Origin: Planctomycetota bacterium
GTDB taxonomy: Bacteria > Planctomycetota > MHYJ01 > JACPRB01
Direction of reading: 5' to 3'
Length of the DNA stretch: 64,000 nt
Assembly (NCBI GenBank): GCA_016209705.1
Contig: JACQVR010000021.1
Coordinates: forward strand, 24,010 to 88,009
Shown here: positions 15,785-30,455 of the stretch, one piece after another
Position numbering within the stretch: the first letter of the stretch is position 1
Layout: every line of letters starts with the position of its first letter
Translations under genes and position numbers: made by a program
Notes under the pieces: model-generated
Told to the model about the DNA's origin: nothing
Databases searched by the model: none
What the model saw: the letters and a program-made list of their open reading frames with translations, nothing else

Positions 15785-15858
15785 TGGGCGTTGAGGGACT
15801 CGAACCCCCGACCTCTTGGGTGTGATCCAAGCGCTCTAACCAACTGAGCTAAACGCCC
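15785..15858 (-). tRNA. tRNA-Val (anticodon CAC), CCA not encoded
   Basis: GGGCGTTTAGCTCAGTTGGTTAGAGCG CTTGG ATCACAC CCAAG AGGTC GGGGG TTCGAGT CCCTC AACGCCC A folds into a cloverleaf. Confidence 0.93.
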
Positions 15859-16057: not shown

Positions 16058-16849
16058 CTATCCCGCCACGTCGAGCTTCTCGATATGTTCGCCCCGGAAC
16101 ACACGGACGGGGCCCGCGTCGAGACGCACTTCGATGCCTTCGATGGGATCCACCTCCTCCACGACGCCTCCGTAGGTCTTTCCCTCGGCGCGGATCCGGA
16201 CCCTCCGATTCAGGATCTCCGATCGATCCCGCCACGCCTTGCGAATCTCCTTGATCCGATGCGCCGGGTCGTCCGCCCAGCGCTCCATCGCCTCCATGAG
16301 CGCCCGCGCCACGTGGATCCGACTGACCTCCTCCCCCTTCTCGATCGACAGGGATGTCGCCGTCGCCCGCAGCTCCTTCGGAAAATCGGACGCCGCCACG
16401 TTGACGTTGACGCCGATTCCCGCGACGAACAAATCCGGCCTCCCCGAGATGAAGCGCGATTCCACCAGCACGCCCGCCAGCTTCTTTCCCGCCGACACGA
16501 CGTCGTTGGGGAAGCGGATCCCCGCCTCGATCCCGCCCGCCTCCTCCACCGCGTCCGCCGCCGCCAGGGCCGCCGCCGCCGTCACCAGCGGAACCCGATC
16601 CACGGAAATCTCCGGACGCAGGATCACGGAACACAGAATTGAGGTCCCCCGAGGCGCGAACCATTCGCGCCCCATCCGCCCCCTCCCTCGGCGCTGCTCC
16701 TCCGCGAAGATCGCCGTCCCGTGCGGCGCGCCTTCCACGGCCTGGCTCCAAGCCGCGTCGTTGGTGGACCCCACCGACTTGAGGCACAGAATCTTCCGCC
16801 CCATGTTCCGGGCCGCCAGCCGCGCTCCAATGGCATGAGGCGTCAACAT
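16058..16849 (-). CDS. birA: Biotin--[acetyl-CoA-carboxylase] ligase (no N-terminal HTH)
   Basis: VGSTND, AEEQRRGRGRMGREW, RFPNDV..GKKLAGVLVE and GIGVNVN motifs. Confidence 0.92.
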   Translation of the reverse strand: MLTPHAIGARLAARNMGRKILCLKSVGSTNDAAWSQAVEGAPHGTAIFAEEQRRGRGRMGREWFAPRGTSILCSVILRPEISVDRVPLVTAAAALAAADAVEEAGGIEAGIRFPNDVVSAGKKLAGVLVESRFISGRPDLFVAGIGVNVNVAASDFPKELRATATSLSIEKGEEVSRIHVARALMEAMERWADDPAHRIKEIRKAWRDRSEILNRRVRIRAEGKTYGGVVEEVDPIEGIEVRLDAGPVRVFRGEHIEKLDVAG

Positions 16850-17694
16850 GGACGAAGGTCGAGCGAGAGGTCGATCGCGGGAGCCGAGTGGGTCAACGCG
16901 CCCACGCTGATCCAATCCACCCCGGTCGCCGCGATCGCCCGCACCGACTTCAGCGTCACGCCGCCCGACGCTTCCAGCGTCAGCGCGGGGTTCGCCCGGC
17001 GAAGTCGAGGAACGAGCGATCGCAACGCGGCCACGCTCATGTTGTCGAGCAGCAACGCGTCCACTTCCCACGTCGCGAACACAAGCGCCTGCTCCGGCGT
17101 CTGCGCTTCGATCTCGATTCGAAAACGGGCTCCGCGGCGCCGGCGCAACGCCGCCACCGCGCGGCGCAGCGCCTCCAGGTCGCCCGCCCCTTGGATGTGA
17201 TTGTCCTTGATGAGCGCGGCGTCGAAGAGGCCGAACCGGTGGTTCGTTCCGCCTCCGGCCCGCACGGCGTATCGCTCCAGGAGGCGGCAACCCGGCGTGG
17301 TCTTGCGTGTATCGAGGATCCGCGCTCCCGTTCCGCGCACGGCGTCCACGAACGCCCGCGTCAACGTCGCGATCCCGGACAGGCGCTGCAAGAAATTCAG
17401 CGCCACCCGTTCGCCCGTCAGGATGGATCGAGCTTTCCCGGTCACCCGCGCGACGGCCCGCCCCGAACGCGCCCGCGCCCCGTCCTTCACGAGCGGGGCG
17501 AGCGCCGCTCCTCCCAGCCGCCGAAATACCTCTCGAGCCAGGGGAAGACCACAAATCACGGCCGGGCGCTTCAGGACAATCATGCCGACCGCGCGCCGGT
17601 CGAAAGGAATCGTCGCTTCAGACGTGACGTCGCCCGACCCCACGTCCTCCGCCAGAGCTTGGGCGACGAGGCGCGCTACCTCGGAACGGCGCAT
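16843..17694 (-). CDS. nadC: Quinolinate phosphoribosyltransferase
   Basis: AEDVGSGDVTS, ERVALNFLQRLSGIAT, DTRKTTPG, HRFGLFD..LIKDNH, LEASGG and ISVGALTHS motifs. Confidence 0.96.
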   Translation of the reverse strand: MRRSEVARLVAQALAEDVGSGDVTSEATIPFDRRAVGMIVLKRPAVICGLPLAREVFRRLGGAALAPLVKDGARARSGRAVARVTGKARSILTGERVALNFLQRLSGIATLTRAFVDAVRGTGARILDTRKTTPGCRLLERYAVRAGGGTNHRFGLFDAALIKDNHIQGAGDLEALRRAVAALRRRRGARFRIEIEAQTPEQALVFATWEVDALLLDNMSVAALRSLVPRLRRANPALTLEASGGVTLKSVRAIAATGVDWISVGALTHSAPAIDLSLDLRPC

Positions 17695-17721
17695 CAGGCG
17701 GCCCGGCCTTCCGGGTGATGG

Positions 17722-17980
17722 TCGAGATGTTGGAGATATGGAGATAGGCCGTGCCATCATTGAGGGTCTTATCTCCACGGCTTCGATATCAGCTTAGGGC
17801 TCGTGAAAAAGTAAGTGCTCTTTTTTTGATCAACCGCCAAAACGCCAAATCGCCATCGGGGTCTCTTTTGGCGAGCCTTTTGGCGGTTTGGCCGCTTTGG
17901 CGGTTCAAGTCTTCCACCAGAAATCGATCCTTTGTTTATTCACAACTCCTTATCTCCAATATCTCGACATCCCCTTGAAT
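17722..17980. repeat. Nested intergenic repeats: octamer arms enclosing an AACCGCCAA...TTGGCGGTT palindrome
   Basis: gagatgttggagatatggagatagg (about 17724), palindrome at 17832-17906, atctccaatatctcgacatcccc (about 17953). Confidence 0.65.
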
Positions 17981-17983
17981 CTC

Positions 17984-18862
17984 TCAACACGTCCCTAGCA
18001 CCGCCTTGACCGTCCGGCCGACGTCCGCCGGATCAAGCACGCACGTGACGCCCGCCTCGCGCAGGGCGCGATATTTTTCGGCCGCGGTGCCCTTGCCGCC
18101 CTGGATGATCGCCCCCGCGTGCCCCATCCGCTTGCCCGGCGGCGCCGTCTGCCCGCCCACGAAGGCGATGACGGGCTTGCGCATGTGCTCGCGGATGTAC
18201 GCAGCCGCGTCTTCTTCCATGGTGCCGCCGATCTCTCCGGCCATCACGACGGCGCGCGTTCCGGGATCAGCGTGGAACAGCTTCAGAATGTCGACGAAGT
18301 CGGATCCCTGCACGGGATCGCCGCCGATGCCCACGCACGTCGATTGGCCCAGTTCCAGCATCGAGAGCTGCCAGACGATCTCGTAGGTCAGCGTGCCGCT
18401 GCGCGACACCACGCCGATGTCGCCCTTTTTGTGGATGTAGCCGGGCATGATGCCCAGCTTGGCCTCACCGGGCGTGATAAGACCGGGACAATTGGGACCG
18501 ATCATCCGCGTAGACGTGTCTTTCAGGAAGGCCCGCAGGCGGCACTCGTCCATGATCGAGATCCCCTCGGTGATGCAGACGACGAGGGGAATTCCGGCCG
18601 CCGCCGCTTCCATTACGCTGTCCGCCGCGAACGCCCCGGGCACGAAGCAGACCCCGGCGTTGGCGCCGGTGCGGCGCACCGCTTCCTCGCAGGAATTGAA
18701 GACCGGCACCTTGCCGTCGAAGGTCTGCCCGCCCTTGCCGGGCGTGACACCGGCGACGACGTTCGTTCCATACTCGATCATCGCCCGCGCGTGAAACCCG
18801 CCGGCGCTGCCGGTGATGCCATGAACGACGACCCGGGTGTCTTTGTTGACCAGGATGCTCAT
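17984..18862 (-). CDS. sucD: Succinyl-CoA synthetase alpha subunit
   Basis: [40 protein letters not shown] and RMGHAGA motifs. Confidence 0.97.
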
Positions 18863-18868
18863 AAGTAC

Positions 18869-18924
18869 GATGTCCGAAGTTCGATGTCCGAAGTCCGGAC
18901 GGAGGGAGCTCCGCGACTTCGGAC

Positions 18925-18954
<30 letters not shown>
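18869..18954. repeat. Heptamer inverted tandem repeat overlapping the sucC 3' end
   Basis: atgtccgaagttcgatgtccgaagtcc ... gacttcggactcaggacttcggactcaggacttcggact. It supplies the sucC terminal KSEVLSPKS*. Confidence 0.75.
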
Positions 18955-20121
<1,167 letters not shown>

Positions 20122-20587
20122 CGCTCTGCGTATCCTGGGTTCCGCTTTCGGGGGGTTTGCTGCGGCGGACGGGTTGAATTCCGCCGCGCATGCTGGGGGC
20201 GGTGATTTTCTCCTCCATGATCTTTCCTTGGGTGAACTTCACCACCTTGCGCTTCGGAATATAGACCTCCTGGGCGGTGGCCTTGGGATTGCGCGCGATC
20301 CGGGGCGCGCGTTCGACGACCTCGAAGACGCCGAAATTTCTCAACTCGACGCGATTCCCTCGAAGGAGGGATTCGAGGATCATGTCGAGCGTTCCCTGCA
20401 CGACGCGCCGCGCCGACGCGATTTGAAGGCGGTGCTTGTCCGCCAGCGTGCGGACGATATGGTTCTTGGTCAGGGTTCGGTTGGAGCTGGACACGTCGGA
20501 TTCCTCGTAAAGGAACGGCCAGTAAAGCACCGCCTCCCGGAGCGGTCAAGCAAAACGCTTGGGTCAAGAGGCTTGGGGAGTTTGGGC

Positions 20588-21379
20588 CTACCCGAGCACG
20601 GCGTCCATGGAATAGTAGCCGGGTTTGGCGGACGCCACGAACGCCGCCGCGCGCAACGCGCCGCGCGCGAACAGGTCGCGGGATCCCGCGCGATGCGTGA
20701 CCGCGATGACCTCGTCTTCCGACGCGAACAGGACGGTGTGCTCTCCGATCACGCCTCCTCCGCGCACCGCGTGCACGCCGATTTCCCGGGGCGGCTTTTC
20801 CCCCGGCGCGCCCCGCCGGCCGAACGTGAAATCCGCGGGAAAGGACCTTCCCGTTTCCCGGGCGATCGCTTCCGCCACGGTGACGGCGGTCCCGCTCGGC
20901 GCGTCCTTCTTCCGGCGGTGGTGCATCTCGATGATCTCGATGTCGAATCGATCTCCCAGTTCCCGGGCGAGCGCCGGCAGGTGCCGAAGCAACGCCGCGA
21001 TCCCGACGCTGGTGTTGGACGCCACGAGCACCGGAATCCGGTCGGCCGCGGAACGCAGGCAGCGACGCTGGTCTTCATCGAAACCAGTCGTGCAGATCAC
21101 TGCCGGAGAGCCGGTTTTCACGCATTCCTCGAGACGGGCCAGCGAGGCCACCGGCGTGGAAAAATCCACCAGCGCGTCCACGCGCGCCTTCAGCGAGTCT
21201 GACACCGCGACGCTCAGAGGGGCGCGCCCCAGCAGCGTGCCGTAGTCCTGCCCGGCCGCCGGCGATCCCGGCGCTTCCAGCGCCGCCGCGATCTCGAAGC
21301 CGGGTTCTTGAAGGACCAGAAGCCCCAGCGCCCGGCCCATGCGCCCGAGCGCGCCGTTGATCGCCAATCGGAGGGTCAT
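20588..21379 (-). CDS. dapB: 4-hydroxy-tetrahydrodipicolinate reductase
   Basis: GALGRMG, DFSTP, CTTGF and EMHHRRKKDAPSGTA motifs. Confidence 0.96.
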   Translation of the reverse strand: MTLRLAINGALGRMGRALGLLVLQEPGFEIAAALEAPGSPAAGQDYGTLLGRAPLSVAVSDSLKARVDALVDFSTPVASLARLEECVKTGSPAVICTTGFDEDQRRCLRSAADRIPVLVASNTSVGIAALLRHLPALARELGDRFDIEIIEMHHRRKKDAPSGTAVTVAEAIARETGRSFPADFTFGRRGAPGEKPPREIGVHAVRGGGVIGEHTVLFASEDEVIAVTHRAGSRDLFARGALRAAAFVASAKPGYYSMDAVLG

Positions 21380-21382
21380 GGT

Positions 21383-22642
21383 TCAACGGCCGCCGAGCTT
21401 CGTTTTGGTCGTCTTTTCCACGCCCTCGCGGAGGTACGTGATGGTGACTTCGTCCCCCTCGCGAAGATCCGTGATGGCGTGCCGGAGTTCCTCGAACGTG
21501 TCCGTCGTCACCTTGTTGACTTTCAGGATCACGTCCCCCGATTGCAGTCCGGCCTCATCCGCGGCGGACCCGGCCTCCACCGAGGACAGCGGCACTCCCT
21601 TCTCCTCGTCCGACTCGGTTTGGGCGGTGACACCCAGGTAGCCCGGATTGCCCGGACGATACGGCCGGGGAGCGGGTTTCGGCGCGCCTCCGGCGCCCCA
21701 CATCTGGATCGTGCCGTCTCGATGCCCGCTGACCAGGCGCCTCCCATCCGGCGTGAAGGTGAGCGCCATCGTCCGATCCGCCTCGATGCGGCGCGCTTCC
21801 TTCCAGGTCCGGCAATCCCAGATCTGGATCCATCCGGAGCAGCTCACGGCCAGGTACTTCCCGCCCGGCATGAACGCGGCTGACGTGATGCCTCGGGGAC
21901 CATCCAGAGCCTGTCGCTCCCTGCCGCTGGCCACGTCATAAACGCGCAACCGGCTGTCCGGCCCCACCACCAGCAACGACTTGGAATCCGGCGAAAATTG
22001 GGTGAGCGCGGAGATCATCATCGCGCCTTCCAGGGTTCCGGTCTTCTCCCCCGTCTCGGCGCTGAAGATCCGCCCCACGGCGTCGCGCCCCACGCACGCA
22101 ATGTGGCGCCCGTCCGGCGACCAGGCCACGCTGCCTCCTTCCGCCGTGCGGCGCCCGATGAGCTGATGCTTCTCATCGCCCGAAGCCATGTCATAAACGC
22201 AGACCGTCCCGTCCGTCTTCAACGCGACGACCCGCTTTCCATCCGGGCTGATCGCGAAGCCGCCGTTCGCATAGTTGACGTTCGAGAAGGCGCGCAGCTC
22301 CCGGCCCTTCTGAGCATCGAAGACTTTCAACGTCCACGGCTTGTCGTTTCCGGGACATACGATGCGCGTGCCGTCGGGCGTCATCTGAACTCTCGTCTGG
22401 CCCAACGGATTGGGAAACGTCCGGATCTTGGCGCGCTTGTGAAAATCCCACAGCGTCAATTCATGCGTGGACGACAAGGAGACCAGCTTGCGGCCGTCGC
22501 GGGAGATGTCGATCGCCATGATGCGGCCGTTGCCGGACATGGAACCCCACACTTTCGCCGTGGAAGGGTTGAAGCGCTGCGAGGACGGCGTGATGTCCAT
22601 CCACAGCGTCGCGGCGAGCGCCGCCAGACCCCAGCGCATCAT
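21383..22642 (-). CDS. Secreted WD40-repeat protein with C-terminal PDZ domain
   Basis: About 7 WD40 repeats (ISRDGRKL, SPDGKRV, WSPDGRH, FTPDGRRL), then GYLGV..VEAGSAADEAGLQSGDVILKVN. Confidence 0.88.
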   Translation of the reverse strand: MMRWGLAALAATLWMDITPSSQRFNPSTAKVWGSMSGNGRIMAIDISRDGRKLVSLSSTHELTLWDFHKRAKIRTFPNPLGQTRVQMTPDGTRIVCPGNDKPWTLKVFDAQKGRELRAFSNVNYANGGFAISPDGKRVVALKTDGTVCVYDMASGDEKHQLIGRRTAEGGSVAWSPDGRHIACVGRDAVGRIFSAETGEKTGTLEGAMMISALTQFSPDSKSLLVVGPDSRLRVYDVASGRERQALDGPRGITSAAFMPGGKYLAVSCSGWIQIWDCRTWKEARRIEADRTMALTFTPDGRRLVSGHRDGTIQMWGAGGAPKPAPRPYRPGNPGYLGVTAQTESDEEKGVPLSSVEAGSAADEAGLQSGDVILKVNKVTTDTFEELRHAITDLREGDEVTITYLREGVEKTTKTKLGGR

Positions 22643-22645
22643 GAT

Positions 22646-23632
22646 TTACCTCCCAGGAGCGCGGGCCGACGCCGCGCCCCGAAGCCCGAAGACAAGGATC
22701 TTCCCGCGGTTCCCGAACACGACGAGCGACCGTCCATCGGCGCTGAATTTCAGCCGCGCCTGTTGGGCGTCGGATTCGCACAACGTCGCCGCTTCCCGCC
22801 CCGTCGCCGTCTCCCACAACTTCACCGATCCGTCGGTTCCGGTGGAAGCCAGGTATCGGCCGTCCTTGGAGAAGCTGACGAACGACGATCCCCCCGTGTG
22901 CCCTTCCAGCCGGCGGAATTCGTTCCACGTCCGCGCGTTCCAGATCACGATCCCCCCTCGCACGGCGGCCGCGACGTAGCGGCCGTCCCGCGATGCCTCG
23001 AACTGGGACAGATATCCCGCGCCTTCCGTGATCACGGTCGAGCGGCCCGATTCGATGTTCGTCGCCCGAAACACGCCGTCCTCGCCGCTCGTCAGAACGT
23101 GCGTCCCGCTTCCGTCGAAGTCGACCGCGTAGACGGAGCCGCTCGATACCTCGAGGCACTTCAGCTCCCGTCCGGTCGCGATGTCCCAAATCCTCACCGT
23201 TCCGTCCTGGCTGCCTCCGGTAGCCAATCGCCGCCCATCCGGGCTGACGGAGACCGATCAGGCGAACCCGTTGGGCATCTCGATCGAGGCGAGCTCCTCC
23301 AAGGAGGCGACGTCCCACACCTTGACGCTTCCGTCGCTGCCGGAGGTGGCCAAGATCTTTCCGTTGGCGCTCCACCCGCCGTCGTGGATGCCGCCGGCAT
23401 GCCCGCTCAGCGAGCCCGTCGTCGCGCCGGTTCTCGTGTCGATGACCTCCACCTCGTTGCCCTTTCGCGCGCATGCGTACCGGCCCGCGCCGGGCAGCCA
23501 GGGCGCGGCGGCGGGGGCGGACCCCACTTCCACGAAGCGGCGCGCGTCGATCGCGGCTCCGCCGGGCGTGATGTCCGCGGCGACGGACAAAGCGAAAAGA
23601 AGCCCGGCGCTGAACGAAAGCATGATCTTCAA
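22646..23632 (-). CDS. Secreted WD40-repeat protein interrupted by one in-frame TGA at 23258-23260 (candidate selenoprotein, or nonsense pseudogene)
   Basis: Track ORFs 23258..23632 and 22646..23227 are in the same frame. Read-through gives ..MPNGFA*SVSVSPDGRRLATGGSQDGTVRIWD, a seamless WD40 repeat. Confidence 0.75.
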
Positions 23633-23683
23633 TTATATACGATGCGTGATCCCCGTCGAGAAGAGAAGCCCGGAACCTCCCGA

Positions 23684-23717: not shown

Positions 23718-24001
<284 letters not shown>

Positions 24002-24041: not shown

Positions 24042-27000
24042 CTACGGGGGAGCCACGAACCGGCCGGTCCGCAGGTACAAGAGTCGGAAGTCCGCGTCCC
24101 GCGCCCCCAGGAGCGTCTCCACCGCGCGCAGGTAATACTTTTTCTGCTCCGCGTACCGCTCCGGATGCTCTTCGCGATCCGTCTTGTAATCCACCACCGT
24201 CCAGCGTTGCCCGATCCGCGCCACAAGGTCGACGACTCCCTGCACCACGCGCTCGCCGTCCGGCAGCAGGAACGGCAGCTCGCGCGCCACGATCTCGGAT
24301 CGCGCCAGGAAGTCGAACGCCTCCGATCGGACGAAGCGATCCAGGATTTCGCGCGCCGTTTCCGCGCCGTCCATCCCCAGCTCCTTCGCGCAAGAAGCCA
24401 CGAGCGGACCCACGTCGGGATTCGCGAAATCGAGACGCTGCATGACGAGATGGCAGAGCGTCCCGAGATCGGTCGCGTCCCGGCGGACCGGGTCGGCTCT
24501 TTCCTGGAGGCGCGACGGGCTGACGAAACGCGTCCGCTCCTGAATCTCGGTAAATTCCCGTTCCCGCTTCATCCAGACCTCGTCGAGCGCGCTCCAATCG
24601 ATGTCCGCGACTCCATCCTCCGGCTCCACCGGCGGGCGCCGGCCCGGCAGCGGCTCCTTCCACACGCAGCGGCGCACCTCGATGCCCAGCGCCTGCGGAT
24701 CCGGCATCGCCGCCAGCAGCTCGCCCATCGGCGATCTCGCGGGAGCGGACGCGCTCGCCGTCATCACCAGCCGCTCTCGCGCGCGCGTCAGCGCCACGTA
24801 CAGCACGCGGCGGGACTCCTCCCCCACGCGCCGCTTCCATAGAAGTCCCAGCGCCGCGCCGCCGGGATCCACGAGCGTCCGCCCGCGGATCCCCAGAAGT
24901 TCTTCGGGCCAGTCGTAGCGGACGGCCTCGTCGTCCCTCCCCCGCGGGTATCGGTGTAGATCGGGCAGGAAAACGACGGGAAACTCGAGTCCCTTGGCCT
25001 TGTGAACGGACATGACGCGCACCGCATCGAGCGCCTCGTCCGCCAGCGGACTCTCGCCCTCCTCGGTCCTCTCGTGGATGTCCCTCCTGAGGCGGACCAG
25101 GAACGCGCGCAGCGTGCCGGCCCCTTCGAGCGACGCCTCCGCCAGCCGCCGCATCTTCAAGAGATTCGCGACCGCCCGCTCCCGATGAAAGGACCGTCCG
25201 GCCAGCTCCAGGAGCGGCAAGCGCTCGAAGATCTCGTCCAGAAGCTCCGGCACGGGAACGCGGGCGGCCCGTCCATGCAGTTCGTTCAGCGATCGATAAA
25301 ACGTCGCCACGGCTTCGGGAGGATTCGCCATCCGATAATCGAGCGCTCCGGCGCGCGCCAGTTCCAGGAGCGTGGCGTCGTCGACCGCGCCCAGCGGCGA
25401 TCGCAGCAGCCCCGCCAGTGCGATCCGATCGAACGGATTGGCGATCGCCCGCAGCAGATTCACGAAGTCGATCACTTCCTGCGTTCCGTAGTAGTACTTT
25501 GCTCCCTCGACGACGTACGGGAGGCCGCACTGATGCAGCTCTTCGACGAGAAGGACCACGTCGGACATCGCCCTCAGGAGGATCGCGATGTCGCCGGGGC
25601 GCAGGGGACGCGTCCCTATCCCTTCGGGCACCTGAAGGGCGCCGACGTTCTTCCGGATCCAGGACGCGATCGTCTCGGCCTCCGCCCGTCGGGCCTCTTC
25701 CGACGACAGCTCCCGGACGCGGTCCCCCTCCTTGGGACCTTCGAACAGGATCGCCTCCACCTTCTGCGACGCCAGCACCGGCGCACGGTCCTCGTGCGCC
25801 TCGATCGCCACGTAGGGCGGCTGAAGATCGCCGGCCTCGCGGATGATCCGCTCGAACAGGCCGTTGACGGCGCGAATGATGCCCGAATGGCTGCGGAAGT
25901 TGGTCTTGAGGAAGAGCTCCGTTCCCCCTTGCGCCAGGATCTGCTCCTTCAGGCGCTTGTAGGCGACGATGTCCGCCCCGCGGAAACTGTAGATCGACTG
26001 CTTCGGATCGCCCACGATGAAGAGCTTCCCGCGCGCCAGGCGCACGTCCCGCGCCCGCGCCGCGTGCGACTCCGCCGTCTCGGCCAGGAACAGGATCACC
26101 TCGCATTGCACGGGATCGGTGTCTTGAAATTCGTCGACGACGAGGAACCGATACTTCGCCTTGAGCCGATCCCGAACTTCGGGAAAGTCCTCCGAAGCCA
26201 GCAGGTCCCGCACCCGCATGAGCAGGCCGTCGAATCCGACCAACCCTTCCCGCGTCATGCGGGCCCGGAACGAACCGGCGAAATCGCACGCCAGGCCGAT
26301 CGCCTCCCGCAGCAATCTCTCGTCCATCGAAACGATGTCGCGAGCGAGCGGAAGCGCCTCCGCCATGGCTTCCTGCGCCCGCTCGTAGTCCCCCGGCTCC
26401 CATCCTTTCTTGGCGGTGCTCACGCGAAGCGGCACGTCGCCCGCCGGCGCCTTTCCTTCCAGCACTTGCGATACGGCGTGCAACTGATCTTTGAGCCCGT
26501 TCGGTCCGGGTTGCCGCGCCGCCAGCGTGCGCAGTCGCGCCGTGAGTTCCTCGGTCAGTCGATCGAGCCGCCGCTGGCCTTTCTCCAGGATCCGCGCCGG
26601 ATCCAGAATCTCCTCGGGAATGCGGAACCGGGAGAGGCCTTCCGCGATCTCGCGCAGCTCTTCGAGGTCCACGCCCGCGAGGACCCGCCGCCAGACGTCC
26701 GGCCGCGGCGCGTGAAGCCCCAGCTCGGCGTCCAACCAGCGCTCCCACTCGCGCTCGAAAAGGTCATCAAAGCGGGGTCCTTGATCGATGGTGAAGCGCG
26801 GCTCGATCCCGGCTTCGATGGGATACTCGCGCAGGATGTGCGCGCAGAACCCGTGGATCGTGGAAATCTCGGCGCGATCAAGCCCCGCGAGCGCGGCCCG
26901 CAGCCGCTCGTCCAGCTCGGGACCCGCCTTCTCGCGCCACCACGCGCGGGCTTCCTCGTCTTCTTTCGAGGCCGGGATCAGGAGCGCCTTGAGCCGATCT

Positions 27001-27212
27001 TCGAGCCGCTCGCGCATCTCGGCCGCCGCCTTGTCCGTAAACGTCAGCATGAGCATGCGGCCGACATCGATGTCCAGCGCCAAAAGTTTCACCAGCACCG
27101 TATCGACAAGCAGCGTCGTCTTTCCCGTGCCCGCCCCCGCGGTCACGGCGACGTTTTCCTCGCCGAACATCGCCGCGAGGCGGATTTCCAGGTCCTTCGT
27201 CGGGGATCTCAT
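24042..27212 (-). CDS. addA: AddA-type UvrD helicase / PD-(D/E)XK nuclease
   Basis: AGAGTGKT, LTFTDKAAAEM, STIHGFC, VVDEFQDT, VGDPKQSIYSFRGAD, SVHKAKGLEF, YVALTRA and GVVDL..VVDYKT motifs. Confidence 0.92.
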   Translation of the reverse strand: MRSPTKDLEIRLAAMFGEENVAVTAGAGTGKTTLLVDTVLVKLLALDIDVGRMLMLTFTDKAAAEMRERLEDRLKALLIPASKEDEEARAWWREKAGPELDERLRAALAGLDRAEISTIHGFCAHILREYPIEAGIEPRFTIDQGPRFDDLFEREWERWLDAELGLHAPRPDVWRRVLAGVDLEELREIAEGLSRFRIPEEILDPARILEKGQRRLDRLTEELTARLRTLAARQPGPNGLKDQLHAVSQVLEGKAPAGDVPLRVSTAKKGWEPGDYERAQEAMAEALPLARDIVSMDERLLREAIGLACDFAGSFRARMTREGLVGFDGLLMRVRDLLASEDFPEVRDRLKAKYRFLVVDEFQDTDPVQCEVILFLAETAESHAARARDVRLARGKLFIVGDPKQSIYSFRGADIVAYKRLKEQILAQGGTELFLKTNFRSHSGIIRAVNGLFERIIREAGDLQPPYVAIEAHEDRAPVLASQKVEAILFEGPKEGDRVRELSSEEARRAEAETIASWIRKNVGALQVPEGIGTRPLRPGDIAILLRAMSDVVLLVEELHQCGLPYVVEGAKYYYGTQEVIDFVNLLRAIANPFDRIALAGLLRSPLGAVDDATLLELARAGALDYRMANPPEAVATFYRSLNELHGRAARVPVPELLDEIFERLPLLELAGRSFHRERAVANLLKMRRLAEASLEGAGTLRAFLVRLRRDIHERTEEGESPLADEALDAVRVMSVHKAKGLEFPVVFLPDLHRYPRGRDDEAVRYDWPEELLGIRGRTLVDPGGAALGLLWKRRVGEESRRVLYVALTRARERLVMTASASAPARSPMGELLAAMPDPQALGIEVRRCVWKEPLPGRRPPVEPEDGVADIDWSALDEVWMKREREFTEIQERTRFVSPSRLQERADPVRRDATDLGTLCHLVMQRLDFANPDVGPLVASCAKELGMDGAETAREILDRFVRSEAFDFLARSEIVARELPFLLPDGERVVQGVVDLVARIGQRWTVVDYKTDREEHPERYAEQKKYYLRAVETLLGARDADFRLLYLRTGRFVAPP

Positions 27213-27263
27213 ATCGGTATCCAAGCGAGATCACAGACGGAGCGGAGATCACGGAGCGAAAAC

Positions 27264-27433
27264 AACCACGGAGACACGGAGGCACGGAGAAAAATCTGGG
27301 GGATGTGGAGATTACTGGAGATATGGAGATCGAAAGGAGTGTTCGACCGAGCCAACGCTCCCCAAAAAAATATCTCCCTATCTCCCCCCATCTCCAGATC
27401 TCCTTAAAAAATCTTCTCCGTGTCTCCGTGGTT
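27264..27433 (+). mobile_element. About 170-bp composite MITE-like repeat, copy 1 (between addB and addA)
   Basis: Termini AACCACGGAGACACGGAG...CTCCGTGTCTCCGTGGTT enclose GGAGAT/ATCTCC octamer arms. A near-identical inverted copy is at 63029-63204. Confidence 0.8.
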
Positions 27434-30400
27434 ATTTTTCTCCGCGCACTCCCTGTCCTGAGCGCAGTCGAAGGGCGTCTCCTCCGTGCGCTCCCCCATG
27501 AAACCGGTCCGCCCGCCGGCGCGTGGGTCCGTGCTGCTTCCGGCAGACGACCGACATCGCGCAGGCGGCGCAGTGTTGAGGATCCGCCCGCAACACGAAT
27601 TCGCCGCGATCCATCGATCCCAGCACCCGGCCGAGAATCCCGAAGAACGCCTTCTCATGTTTCCAGAAATCGCCTTCGAGCCAAAGCTGGGCGGGTTCCC
27701 CTTCGGCCAATTCGCGCAGGAACAAATATCCCGAACACGATTCCGCCCGCTTCGGCGGTTTCCCCTGCTTCTCGAGAAACTTCTCCGCCAGCAAAAAATA
27801 CAGGGGGGGCTGAAAGTAGCGGCCGTGTTCGAGGACGCCCGTGGCCATCGTTTTCCACGGATAGCGGTTCTTCGACCACGACCTCTTGTAGTCGATCACC
27901 CGGAACGCCCCGTCGGGGCGCAGATCGAGTCGATCCAGAATGCCCTTCACCCTCACGCCGACTCCCAGATCCGCCTGGATCTCCAGCTCGAATCGCCAGG
28001 GATGGAAACCGCCGCGCGCCGCCATGTCATGGCGCACGGCCGCCTCGAGCACCGCCCGCATCCGCGACCGCTCGATCTCCCACAGCAACGGATGCCGGAT
28101 CGTGCGCGCCCCGGGCAACTGATCGAACACTTCCCGAAGCGTTGTCTCGAACAGCGGCGCGGCTTCCTCGATGGACGCCGGAACGCGCCCGTCCAGCCGT
28201 TCCCAAAACCGCTGGAGGAAGGCGTGGTAGATCTCGCCTTCCTCCAGCGCCGACGTCTGGAGTTCCAGCTCCGGTTCGTCCAGTTCCTCCAGATTCATGA
28301 CGCGCTCGCTGAAATACTTGAAGGGGCAGGTCGCGAACGTCTCCAACGCGGTGGGCGAAACGGTTTCCCCATGCCCGCGGATGCCGATCCGGCCGTCGCA
28401 GGCGCCGGCGGTCCGGGCGGACTCGATCCGCTCGAGGAACTCGAGGCCCCGTTCGAGATCCGCGTCCCGCGCGAGCAGTTCGACGTTCCGCGCCGACAGC
28501 GCCGCGCGCAGCGCCGCTTCCTTCCGCGTCAGGTGGAGGACGTCGACGGCGCGCAGGCGCTCCGCCGGGCGCCGCGGGACTTGATCCTCGCGTCCGACCG
28601 CCTCTCGCAGGAACAGCGACTTCACCTGGACGCGGCCTTGGTCGTCGGAGCGTTGCCAGGAAAGAACAAGTTCCTCGCAGGAGGCGGCCAGCAGCGTGAA
28701 CAGCAGCCGTTCCTCGTCGTAGCCGCGCAGCTTCTGCGGAAGGCGCGGTCCCAGCCGGGCTGCGATCCGCGCGCGCACCGCGTCGCGAACGAATGGGTCC
28801 TCGAGTATGAAGCGGGGAAACACCCGTTCATTGAGCCCCAGGACCCAGAGCTTGCGGAACGCCAGGCCGCGCGCCGACATGACGTCGACCACCCGCACGC
28901 CGCCGCCGCGGCCGGCCGGCTTCCGCGCGTCCGCCAGACATCGAAGGGCCGTCTCGCGAAGTTCGGTTGGCGACGGCGCCTCTCCGATCGTTTCCAGGCG
29001 GGCCAATCCGGCGAACGCGTCCCGGACCGAGGAGGCCACCTCCTCGCTCCCCAGCGGATCGAGGAGTTCGTCCAGGAGTTCCGCCAGCCAATCCGCGTAT
29101 CGCAGCCATCCGACTGCCTCGGGAGGGACGGCGCGCGTGAGGAGGCGCTCGACGGACTCGCGCAAAAGCCGCACCTGGCGGGCGCCGACCCGAAAGGACC
29201 GGCGTTCGTCCCGCGCTCCCCGCTCCAGAACGAACTCTCCCTCGGGGGGCAGGCGGCGGCGCCATTCGTCGGCGCCGCGTCCGATGCCCCGCGCGCGTGT
29301 CAGCATGTCCCAGAGCACCGCTTCGGGCGGCTCCGGACAGCGGAAGTGGGGCGACGACAGGAGGTCCATCATCGCGTCGCGGGGAAACTCCCCGTCCGCC
29401 AGGGTCAGCAGCGCGCGAACCGCCGAGACATATGGATGCCGCTCCGGCAAAACGGAGTCTCCGGCCGAATGCGGAATCCGGTTCTCGCGGAACAGGCTTT
29501 CCACGTGGATTTCGTACGGCTCGAGCGAGCGCGCGACGACCCCGATCTGATCGAATGGGACTCCTTCCTGGCGCCATTTCAGGATTTGCTTGGCGCAGGC
29601 CCATACTTCGTCGCGAGGGCCGGAGGCGTGAACGATCCTGGCTTCGACCTGTCCGCCGGCGAAAAGGTTCCGCGTCCTCAAGTTGGGGTCCAGGTCGCGC
29701 CTGGAGGCGGCCGCGCCGGCGAGCACCTCCGTGTAAAAACTCTGGGTGAAGGCGTATCCCGGATTCCCCGCTTCGAGCGGATAAAACAATCGCGCGGCGA
29801 AATTGCGAGCCACCGCGTGGAAGAGATCGATCTGAACCTGGACCAGCTCCAGGAATCCGTAGTAGATGATCTCGCGAAAAGCGCCCAGTTGAGCCGACTG
29901 CGGCGCCCGTTCGGCCGCCAAGCGAACCATGCCCGCGCGGTCCATCCAGTCTCTCCTGGCCAGCTCGGTCTCGTAGGCCTGGAGCAACGCGAAAACCTCG
30001 CCGAGCTTGAGCGGGTCTTCGGATCCCAATTCCCCTTCCTGAAGCGCCCGGTAGGAATCGCCGGGATCGAGGCCTCCCTCGCGAAGCTCCATCAAGAGGT
30101 GGAGAATAAACCGCGCCCGCCCCGGCGATTCCGGAACGCCGGACAGATAGCGCGCGTTGGGGAAGTCGCGCGCGACGATCCGCGCGACCAGCTTCTCGAG
30201 CACGAGATCGTCCTGAACGGGCGCGGCGTCTCCGGCCGCGAGCCGCGCGAACGACATGAGGTGATGGAAGTGCAGCGCGGCGACGCCTTGAGGGAACGCC
30301 TCCAGCGCCAGCTCCTTGAGACGCGTGGCGAGCCGCAGCGACGGCGCGACGATGCACACGGGCGCGAGCGGATCGTCTTTTTTCAACTCGCGCAGGCGCT

Positions 30401-30455
30401 CGACGAACGCCTGCTCCAGCGAGGGATGGAACGGGCCGGTCAGGATCTCGAGCAC
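27432..30455 (-). CDS. addB: AddB-type PD-(D/E)XK nuclease subunit with Fe-S staple cysteines
   Basis: ARGLAFRKLWVLGLNERVFP, SPTALETFATCPFKYF, GILDRLD..VIDYK and CAACAMSVVC motifs. The last residues derive from a REP-like repeat at 27451-27475. Confidence 0.9.
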   Translation of the reverse strand: MLEILTGPFHPSLEQAFVERLRELKKDDPLAPVCIVAPSLRLATRLKELALEAFPQGVAALHFHHLMSFARLAAGDAAPVQDDLVLEKLVARIVARDFPNARYLSGVPESPGRARFILHLLMELREGGLDPGDSYRALQEGELGSEDPLKLGEVFALLQAYETELARRDWMDRAGMVRLAAERAPQSAQLGAFREIIYYGFLELVQVQIDLFHAVARNFAARLFYPLEAGNPGYAFTQSFYTEVLAGAAASRRDLDPNLRTRNLFAGGQVEARIVHASGPRDEVWACAKQILKWRQEGVPFDQIGVVARSLEPYEIHVESLFRENRIPHSAGDSVLPERHPYVSAVRALLTLADGEFPRDAMMDLLSSPHFRCPEPPEAVLWDMLTRARGIGRGADEWRRRLPPEGEFVLERGARDERRSFRVGARQVRLLRESVERLLTRAVPPEAVGWLRYADWLAELLDELLDPLGSEEVASSVRDAFAGLARLETIGEAPSPTELRETALRCLADARKPAGRGGGVRVVDVMSARGLAFRKLWVLGLNERVFPRFILEDPFVRDAVRARIAARLGPRLPQKLRGYDEERLLFTLLAASCEELVLSWQRSDDQGRVQVKSLFLREAVGREDQVPRRPAERLRAVDVLHLTRKEAALRAALSARNVELLARDADLERGLEFLERIESARTAGACDGRIGIRGHGETVSPTALETFATCPFKYFSERVMNLEELDEPELELQTSALEEGEIYHAFLQRFWERLDGRVPASIEEAAPLFETTLREVFDQLPGARTIRHPLLWEIERSRMRAVLEAAVRHDMAARGGFHPWRFELEIQADLGVGVRVKGILDRLDLRPDGAFRVIDYKRSWSKNRYPWKTMATGVLEHGRYFQPPLYFLLAEKFLEKQGKPPKRAESCSGYLFLRELAEGEPAQLWLEGDFWKHEKAFFGILGRVLGSMDRGEFVLRADPQHCAACAMSVVCRKQHGPTRRRADRFHGGAHGGDALRLRSGQGVRGEK

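Follow-up and report, generated by a model that had tools for sequence, protein, structure and literature searches.

A predicted WD40 propeller selenoprotein family from uncultured Planctomycetota

Introduction

Prokaryotic selenoproteins are mostly thioredoxin-like or metal-centre redox proteins, and an inventory of 2026 comprises 119 families (PMC13188914). In genes of the E. coli fdhF type an in-frame UGA is accompanied by SelA, SelB, SelD and tRNA-Sec, by Cys orthologues and by a downstream G-G-loop hairpin within the coding region; the consensus model of this bacterial SECIS element has a loop beginning with G at 16–37 nt from the UGA (PMC13188914). No WD40 or propeller protein is entered in Table 1 of the 119 families, where the families of Haft and Tolstoy 2025 (mSystems) are covered as rows. 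The terms 'WD40', 'repeat', 'propeller' and 'NHL' are absent from the main texts of PMC1976440, PMC2398784, PMC9312934, PMC12013277, PMC13326102 and PMC13188914, and were not found in the accessible portions of the BSepDB and deep-Sep supplements. The freely accessible part of the literature on bacterial WD40 or beta-propeller selenoproteins, subscription papers being outside this scope, likewise yielded nothing on such a family. An NHL-repeat selenoprotein in early surveys was not borne out by the term search of the selenoproteome papers.

To our knowledge, WD40 domains are usually regarded as scaffolds for binding that have no activity themselves. According to the accessible part of PMC5587647, Planctomycetes are rich in WD40 proteins. 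The described WD40 proteins closest to the one reported here are PkwA of Thermomonospora curvata (PDB 5YZV), WDR61, WDR5 and the repetitive propeller 2YMU. A propeller with a link to selenium is SELENBP1 (methanethiol oxidase), which is seven-bladed and does not belong to the WD40 type. As far as the accessible text of PMC10362175 goes, it uses His, Asp and Glu of its cavity for copper-dependent thiol oxidation and binds selenium as selenite; a selenoprotein coded by UGA is not described there. Sec and PDZ occur together in the Trx7/PDZ (seleno)protein NF041199, with Sec in the CxxU motif of a thioredoxin fold.

The gene described here was found in a window of 64,000 nt, the whole stretch of planctomycete DNA that was analysed. 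It shares the above features with the fdhF type. In contrast, the conserved loop lies at 39 nt instead of 16–37 nt and is mostly preceded by another conserved hairpin, and the encoded fold is a predicted WD40 propeller. Like the known WD40 proteins the product has WD40 repeats and seven predicted blades; unlike them, its family has a leader, an invariant His-Asp pair and an invariant Sec or Cys at predicted top-face positions, and an insertion in the stretch G-G-S-x-D. With SELENBP1 it would share the seven blades, a cavity His and Asp and thiol chemistry (an analogy of the site alone, drawn from the accessible text of PMC10362175), but SELENBP1 was absent from the Pfam, NCBIfam and fold matches of the window protein. 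NF041199 is matched weakly, via its PDZ domain, by the neighbouring WD40-PDZ gene (34.8 bits, cut-off 300), whereas the Sec would here be on the propeller and the PDZ domain is encoded by a separate gene without Sec. In NCBIfam 20.0 the best match was TolB with 21.5 bits (cut-off 343), and no selenoprotein model was matched at E 0.1. The statement of an earlier note on this DNA, whose author knew of no characterised bacterial WD40 selenoprotein family, agrees with the inventory of 119 families (PMC13188914).

Results

Gene structure and export

The minus strand from 23632 to 22646 was translated as one open frame with a sole TGA at 23260–23258 and the stop TAA at 22648–22646. Counted from the ATG at 23623, the TGA is codon 122 of a 325-aa product. 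The earlier note had described a frame that is intact on both sides of a single TGA; the frame and its context were found as described, and the strand, which had not been given, is the minus strand. The coordinates of all features are summarized in Table 1.

Table 1 Features of the WD40 selenoprotein locus (positions in the window)
Feature	Position	Strand	Remarks
WD40 selenoprotein gene	22646–23623	−	325 aa, TGA predicted to be read as Sec (residue 122); alternative TTG start 23632
In-frame TGA, Sec122 codon	23258–23260	−	R1 (top-face) position of blade 3; strand E121–126
His80-Asp81 codons	23381–23386	−	R1 and R2 of blade 2; strand E79–84
Predicted signal peptide	23576–23623	−	16 aa, hydrophobic, V-A-A end before conserved Asp; sequence pattern
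TATAAT box	23632–23637	−	candidate −10 element, short leader; 8 nt upstream of ATG
First hairpin	23233–23244	−	+14 to +25 after UGA, GGAU loop; fold prediction
Second hairpin, conserved SECIS candidate	23210–23224	−	+34 to +48, 6-bp stem, G-G-N triloop; 5/6 pairs in window gene
Downstream WD40-PDZ gene	21383–22642	−	419 aa, no Sec; hydrophobic leader, WD40 propeller (PF00400), C-terminal PDZ (PF13180 at 334–416)

Translation more likely starts at the ATG 23623 than at the TTG 23632, because a TATAAT box lies closely upstream of the ATG and overlaps the TTG, on whose first base it ends, and because the public gene call (121 aa, from ATG 23623 to the TGA) starts there. A TATAAT-like hexamer was found 2–23 nt before the start codon in all 16 loci with enough flanking sequence (L020–L036; loose pattern, without shuffle control), which suggests very short 5' leaders.

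A hydrophobic leader of 12–25 aa precedes an Asp in 55 of 55 scorable rows of the family alignment (5 of the 60 rows were skipped). The leaders often end with A-x-A before the conserved Asp, which is Asp17 of the window protein and is kept in 58 of 60 rows; some of them have merely 12–13 aa. The protein is thus likely exported, as judged from the predicted leader.

The TGA was also present in assembled contigs of the sequencing runs X1 (depth 15) and X2 (depth 9), with 0 differences. Both runs belong to the same study, possibly the source of this genome, and are not independent of the assembly, so that they show its self-consistency only. The small-share runs X3 and X5 do not reach the TGA.

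Orthologues and the Sec/Cys column

A search of 61 genomes resulted in 17 best matches, one per genome, all from the family of the window organism (E ≤3.6e-45; next match 2.5e-38). The proteins of these 17 genomes, which represent 9 genera, share 33–47% identity with the window protein, and the codon at column 122 is TGA in 13 and TGC in 4 of them. Metagenomes were searched with a pattern spanning the His-Asp stretch and not column 122. Of the 22 loci found, 20 span the column, and after merging of 3 loci with identical DNA a set of 34 distinct copies including the genomes was obtained. Column 122 is TGA in 23 and TGC in 11 of these copies; no other codon and neither TAA nor TAG occurs.

Among 120 protein matches listed, 27 score 106–127 bits on the family profile, and the next one, as the best of the generic WD40 repeats, 63 bits. 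All 27 have Cys at column 122 together with the His-Asp pair and are named 'WD40 repeat protein' by their sources. The position was consequently TGA or Cys throughout and never Trp. The earlier note had placed the TGA at a variable residue of the WD40 repeat; this was not borne out, as the column is an invariant Sec/Cys in the family.

Gene callers end the gene at the TGA, and the family is therefore invisible in protein databases save as its Cys form. When 1.84 billion representatives were searched with a full-alignment profile, the best 150 matches were long generic WD40 proteins, and with the 121-aa N-terminal piece as query the sole match was the truncated window protein itself.

A profile of 73 columns from blades 2 and 3 matched 17 of 20 genomes in the family at E 1e-20 and none of 36 other genomes in the class. 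In a shallower search of 401 genomes of the phylum, with five candidates scored per genome, five members from this family and no true member outside it were found. The match in G161 (L055) with E 5.7e-63 is a generic WD40 protein (best 60.5 bits) and not a member. A pattern search derived from a 7-sequence alignment resulted in six genome loci, all duplicates of known copies; a single pattern misses subclades with other residues near His-Asp. Named records of the WD40 selenoprotein family are from uncultured Planctomycetota. In the data searched, the predicted selenoprotein family was found only in one uncultured family of this phylum.

Trees were calculated with column 122 masked. Three changes between Sec and Cys are needed on the careful tree of 34 rows and six on the quick tree of 60 rows, where at least four are forced by starred branches. 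Midpoint rooting makes Sec look ancestral, although such a rooting is not an inference of the root itself. A large Cys-only clade comprises 26 of the 60 rows, and its two genomes, G009 and G018, have no Sec gene that could be found.

Sec machinery and further in-frame TGA codons

A Sec reading presupposes the Sec machinery, whose absence the earlier note had named as a refutation. The source genome (91.8% complete) encodes SelA (556 bits, cut-off 268), SelB (345 bits, cut-off 242), a Sec-type SelD with its own in-frame TGA (363 bits, cut-off 125) and a tRNA-Sec with anticodon UCA (70.8 bits, above cut-off). Each of the 13 genomes with TGA carries selB and has three or all four of the Sec genes; not found were selA in G017, selD in G004 and tRNA-Sec in G007, G008 and G010. 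For the genomes with the Cys form two situations were observed. None of the four Sec genes was found in G009 (88% complete) and G018 (65%), while G013 with four of four and G019 with three of four retain the machinery. The Cys form is thus not a simple consequence of machinery loss.

TGA is the commonest stop codon of the source genome and ends 937 of 1747 long ORFs; it is thus not reassigned wholesale. In a rough scan, several genes of the thioredoxin-fold, peroxiredoxin and AhpD-like types were found to have TGA in place of the redox Cys codon. As judged from these redox positions, the organism is predicted to make wide use of Sec.

A scan based on codon usage resulted in at least nine further in-frame TGA candidates (9 of 25 retained: C34:24220+, C59:9789−, C65:952−, C69:2898−, C78:64478+, C95:64334+, C107:9108−, C132:8594+ and C83:1143−). 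This list is a lower bound, as the scan missed both the WD40 gene and selD. By their motifs we take them to be two DsbD-like proteins with UxxC, a peroxiredoxin, a small G-U protein, a thioredoxin-7-like protein with UxxC, an AhpD-like protein with CxxU, a thioredoxin with UxxC and a deiodinase-like protein, C83 being without label. Most of the nine have a hairpin with a G-G/U loop 16–29 nt after the UGA. Another WD40 match with one in-frame TGA was observed in a related genome (G015:C737:5641–6261), where the TGA may be a gene boundary.

RNA hairpins downstream of the UGA

The earlier note had proposed a SECIS-like hairpin with a GGAU loop 17 nt after the UGA. This hairpin exists in the prediction, with a 4-bp stem and pair probabilities of 0.99 in an 80-nt fold; as evidence for a SECIS element it is weak. 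The loose bacterial rule, which asks for a G within the first two positions of the loop, a loop 16–37 nt from the codon and a stem of at least 4 bp, was satisfied by 17 of 23 TGA copies but also by all 11 Cys copies, and was therefore dropped as a test. The first hairpin alone is no more than chance by this measure. With the stricter G-G/U loop, 10 of 23 TGA copies and 4 of 11 Cys copies were positive. In the region from +10 to +28, at least six of seven pairs are formed in 15 of 23 TGA copies and in none of the 11 Cys copies, with a varying loop. This first hairpin is less constant and takes several forms, among them the one of the window gene at +14 to +25.

The RNA element that is conserved is another one, which was not mentioned before. 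In this second hairpin +34 to +39 pairs with +43 to +48, across codons for Ala-Thr-Gly-Gly-Ser. Of the 23 TGA copies, 21 form five or six of the six pairs, and 18 form all six; none of the 11 Cys copies reaches five pairs, even though the peptide that they encode there is the same or nearly so. Paired cells amount to 93% in the TGA copies and 62% in the Cys copies. The third base of the Ala/Val codon in the 5' arm is T in 20 of 23 TGA copies and in none of the 11 Cys copies. As GCT accounts for 4.9% of the Ala codons in the source genome, the hairpin relies on rare codons. A double change from A-U to G-C was observed in 4 of 20 distinct rows.

Under synonymous resampling, for which the codon usage of the source genome was applied to all copies, a perfect second stem had a chance of 0.0001–0.006 per gene. 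The corresponding value was 0.019 for the window gene, whose stem has one mismatch, and 0.21–0.63 for the Cys copies. These values refer to registers that were derived from the same sequences that were scored, and the copies are kin. The RNAalifold consensus is weak (−6.5 kcal/mol). At the corresponding site of eight other WD40 repeats of the source genome two to four pairs are formed. In L021 and L035, the two TGA copies that lack the second hairpin, a hairpin with a G-G loop is located at 21 or 17 nt.

The loop of the second hairpin begins 39 nt after the UGA, 2 nt past the range of the model. From these comparisons we infer that the second hairpin would be the usual SelB site in the family; the window gene has both hairpins.

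Fold and candidate site

The protein matches PF00400 (WD40) with 107 bits (cut-off 27). A structure model from a 17-row alignment (pLDDT 88.7, pTM 0.85) has 28 strands in seven blades, which require both the half before and the half after the TGA, and the product is accordingly predicted as a seven-bladed WD40 propeller. The top structure matches were the WD40 folds of PkwA (Foldseek E 2.7e-23 and TM 0.73 to 5yzv_B; Z 30.8 to 5yzv_A), WDR5 and WDR61 (Z 31.9). No propeller enzyme was among the best 50 rows of the structure searches; as WD40 scaffolds fill them, this absence says little.

The residue that follows the first bulky residue of strand a is called R1 and protrudes on the top face, according to the accessible part of Wu et al. 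2012 (PMC3419727). Besides the positions given in Table 1, Tyr/Phe120 is R1-2 of blade 3 and Tyr/Phe165 is R1 of blade 4. Invariant in the 60 rows are His80, Asp81, Sec/Cys122, Gly136 and Ser138; for His80-Asp81 this holds by construction of the search pattern in 17 metagenome rows, but not in the other 43. Aromatic residues (Tyr/Phe) occupy position 96 in 54, position 120 in 60 and position 165 in 56 of the 60 rows. The insertion beside the site, G-G-S-x-D, is of one residue. No UxxC or CxxU motif is present, and apart from column 122 no column has Cys in more than 9 of 60 rows; half of the rows (30 of 60) lack any other Cys after residue 25.

Sec122 and His80-Asp81, at predicted top-face positions of adjacent blades, would form a reactive site, their closeness being judged from the repeat position. 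Sequence-adjacent His and Asp do not correspond to the layout of a classic catalytic triad.

Neighbourhood of the gene

As noted before, the WD40-PDZ gene begins after a gap of 3 nt. A WD40 paralogue is directly downstream in 15 of 17 genomes, and the selenoprotein gene heads an array of one to three or more tandem WD40 or WD40-PDZ genes. The genes of these arrays (window 21383–22642; L100–L113) often have overlapping stop and start codons, and they all open with a leader that is short and hydrophobic, an Asp and a proline-containing stretch that is similar among them. Number and order of the partners vary and their alignment has no conserved Cys. The two exceptions without downstream paralogue are Cys forms in genomes where no Sec genes were found. 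In the Cys-only clade the downstream WD40-PDZ genes are lost in the four loci inspected (L111 of G009, L114 of G018, L069 and L077).

Near the loci of the family no redox gene and no conserved metal transport or resistance gene was found. No hint of function comes from the remaining block, which consists of housekeeping genes in the same order in the relatives. We take these to be dapB-like, HU/IHF-like, sucC-like and sucD-like genes downstream (window 16058–21379, minus strand) and AddAB-like helicase-nuclease genes upstream (24042–30455, minus strand). Relatives have an additional 8-oxoguanine glycosylase-like gene and an AAA_26/DRTGG gene in this block. A large bacterial SRP RNA is encoded on the plus strand (23719–24000; RF01854, 130.5 bits, gathering 60). 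It is transcribed divergently from the selenoprotein gene and lies 96 nt away from the ATG of the latter; most relatives have a family-2 glycosyltransferase gene (PF00535) in its place. A tRNA gene was detected at 15785–15858 on the minus strand (RF00005, 70.6 bits).

Discussion

The earlier note had proposed a Sec residue on a secreted beta-propeller. The Sec residue on a predicted propeller is supported by the Sec machinery, by the column with TGA or Cys only and by the contigs with TGA, which are not independent of the assembly. Taking the sequence comparisons together, insertion of Sec at the UGA by a SelB-dependent route is almost certain. It is also very likely that the UGA is decoded as Sec in combination with a functional Sec site, an estimate that does not extend to the exact chemistry. 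The UGA would be read by SelB and tRNA-Sec, likely guided by the hairpins in the coding region. SelB would bind the G-G-N triloop hairpin at 39 nt, and the first hairpin may make the effective distance shorter, or may itself act as a second site.

Together with His80 and Asp81, Sec122 likely makes up a reactive site at the propeller's top face. For this site we favour, at about even confidence, a selenolate in the envelope that is tuned by His and Asp and would serve as a nucleophile or redox centre consisting of one residue, its substrate, a peptide or a small compound, being held in the propeller mouth. Since no second Cys is conserved, recycling would need an outside thiol; candidates are the Sec-type thioredoxin-fold proteins of the genome. 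A redox role is backed neither by a CxxU or UxxC motif nor by a neighbouring redox gene. The co-transcribed WD40-PDZ paralogues may bring protein substrates, but are dispensable in one Cys clade. The complete picture, an exported Sec-His-Asp enzyme on a WD40 top face that works with WD40-PDZ paralogues on envelope proteins and has a two-hairpin SECIS element with a SelB loop past the accepted distance, is tentative and somewhat doubtful as a whole.

Instead of forming a nucleophile, Sec122, His80 and Asp81 could coordinate a soft metal such as Cu, Zn or Hg at the propeller mouth, and the protein could be a metal sensor, chaperone or metallo-enzyme. This is conceivable but rather unlikely. Metals are typically bound by residues such as His, Asp and Sec/Cys, the conserved aromatic residues at 96, 120 and 165 surround the site without a conserved resolving Cys, and the copper-dependent reaction of SELENBP1 in a propeller cavity, as given in the accessible text of PMC10362175, would be a parallel. 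But merely three candidate ligands are invariant, and a nearby gene for metal transport or resistance is not conserved.

With still lower probability, the propeller is a non-catalytic binding scaffold, in which Sec/Cys122 serves as redox switch or as selenenyl-sulfide anchor for a partner, e.g. the WD40-PDZ paralogue. The nearest folds, all WD40 scaffolds, and the paralogue directly downstream in most genomes would fit such a role, as would the R1 positions, which are protein-binding hotspots according to the accessible part of PMC3419727. However, the partners have no conserved Cys with which an anchor could be formed, they vary in count and order, and one Cys clade without partner gene still keeps His-Asp and Cys.

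Two further explanations concern the UGA itself. That it is a true stop, be it from a recent nonsense mutation, from an error in sequencing or from a split of the gene into pieces of 121 and 193 aa, is extremely improbable: TGA is the commonest stop of the genome, a TTG at 23227 opens the downstream 193-aa ORF and the 121-aa piece is found in the public protein set, but TGA recurs at the same column in the 23 distinct copies from nine genera and many metagenomes, alternates with TGC alone and is tracked by the hairpin, the contigs of two runs agree on it, and the leader is on the first piece alone, so that split halves would sit in different compartments. A reading as Cys, Trp or another residue by a route other than Sec (code reassignment or a special tRNA) can hardly be expected either: Cys is indeed the sole alternative residue, but TGA is in regular use as stop, the lone UCA-anticodon tRNA found scores as tRNA-Sec, selA, selB and the TGA-bearing selD are present, and TGA is found at the redox Cys of several other genes of the same genome.

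Returning to the reading of residue 122 as Sec, this is a real, uncatalogued selenoprotein family, in which the decoding route is known and the fold and the site are new. The family offers a natural experiment on the rules for SECIS elements: TGA copies retain a hairpin 39 nt from the UGA, and every Cys lineage has lost it. The natural Cys orthologues make the chemistry of the site directly testable in E. coli. Chemistry on a WD40 scaffold is suggested by the binding face, where a Sec/Cys and a neighbouring His-Asp are both invariant. If the catalytic reading is true, the WD40 domain would be active in its own right, and the protein would belong to a broader class of exported propeller selenoproteins that has been overlooked.
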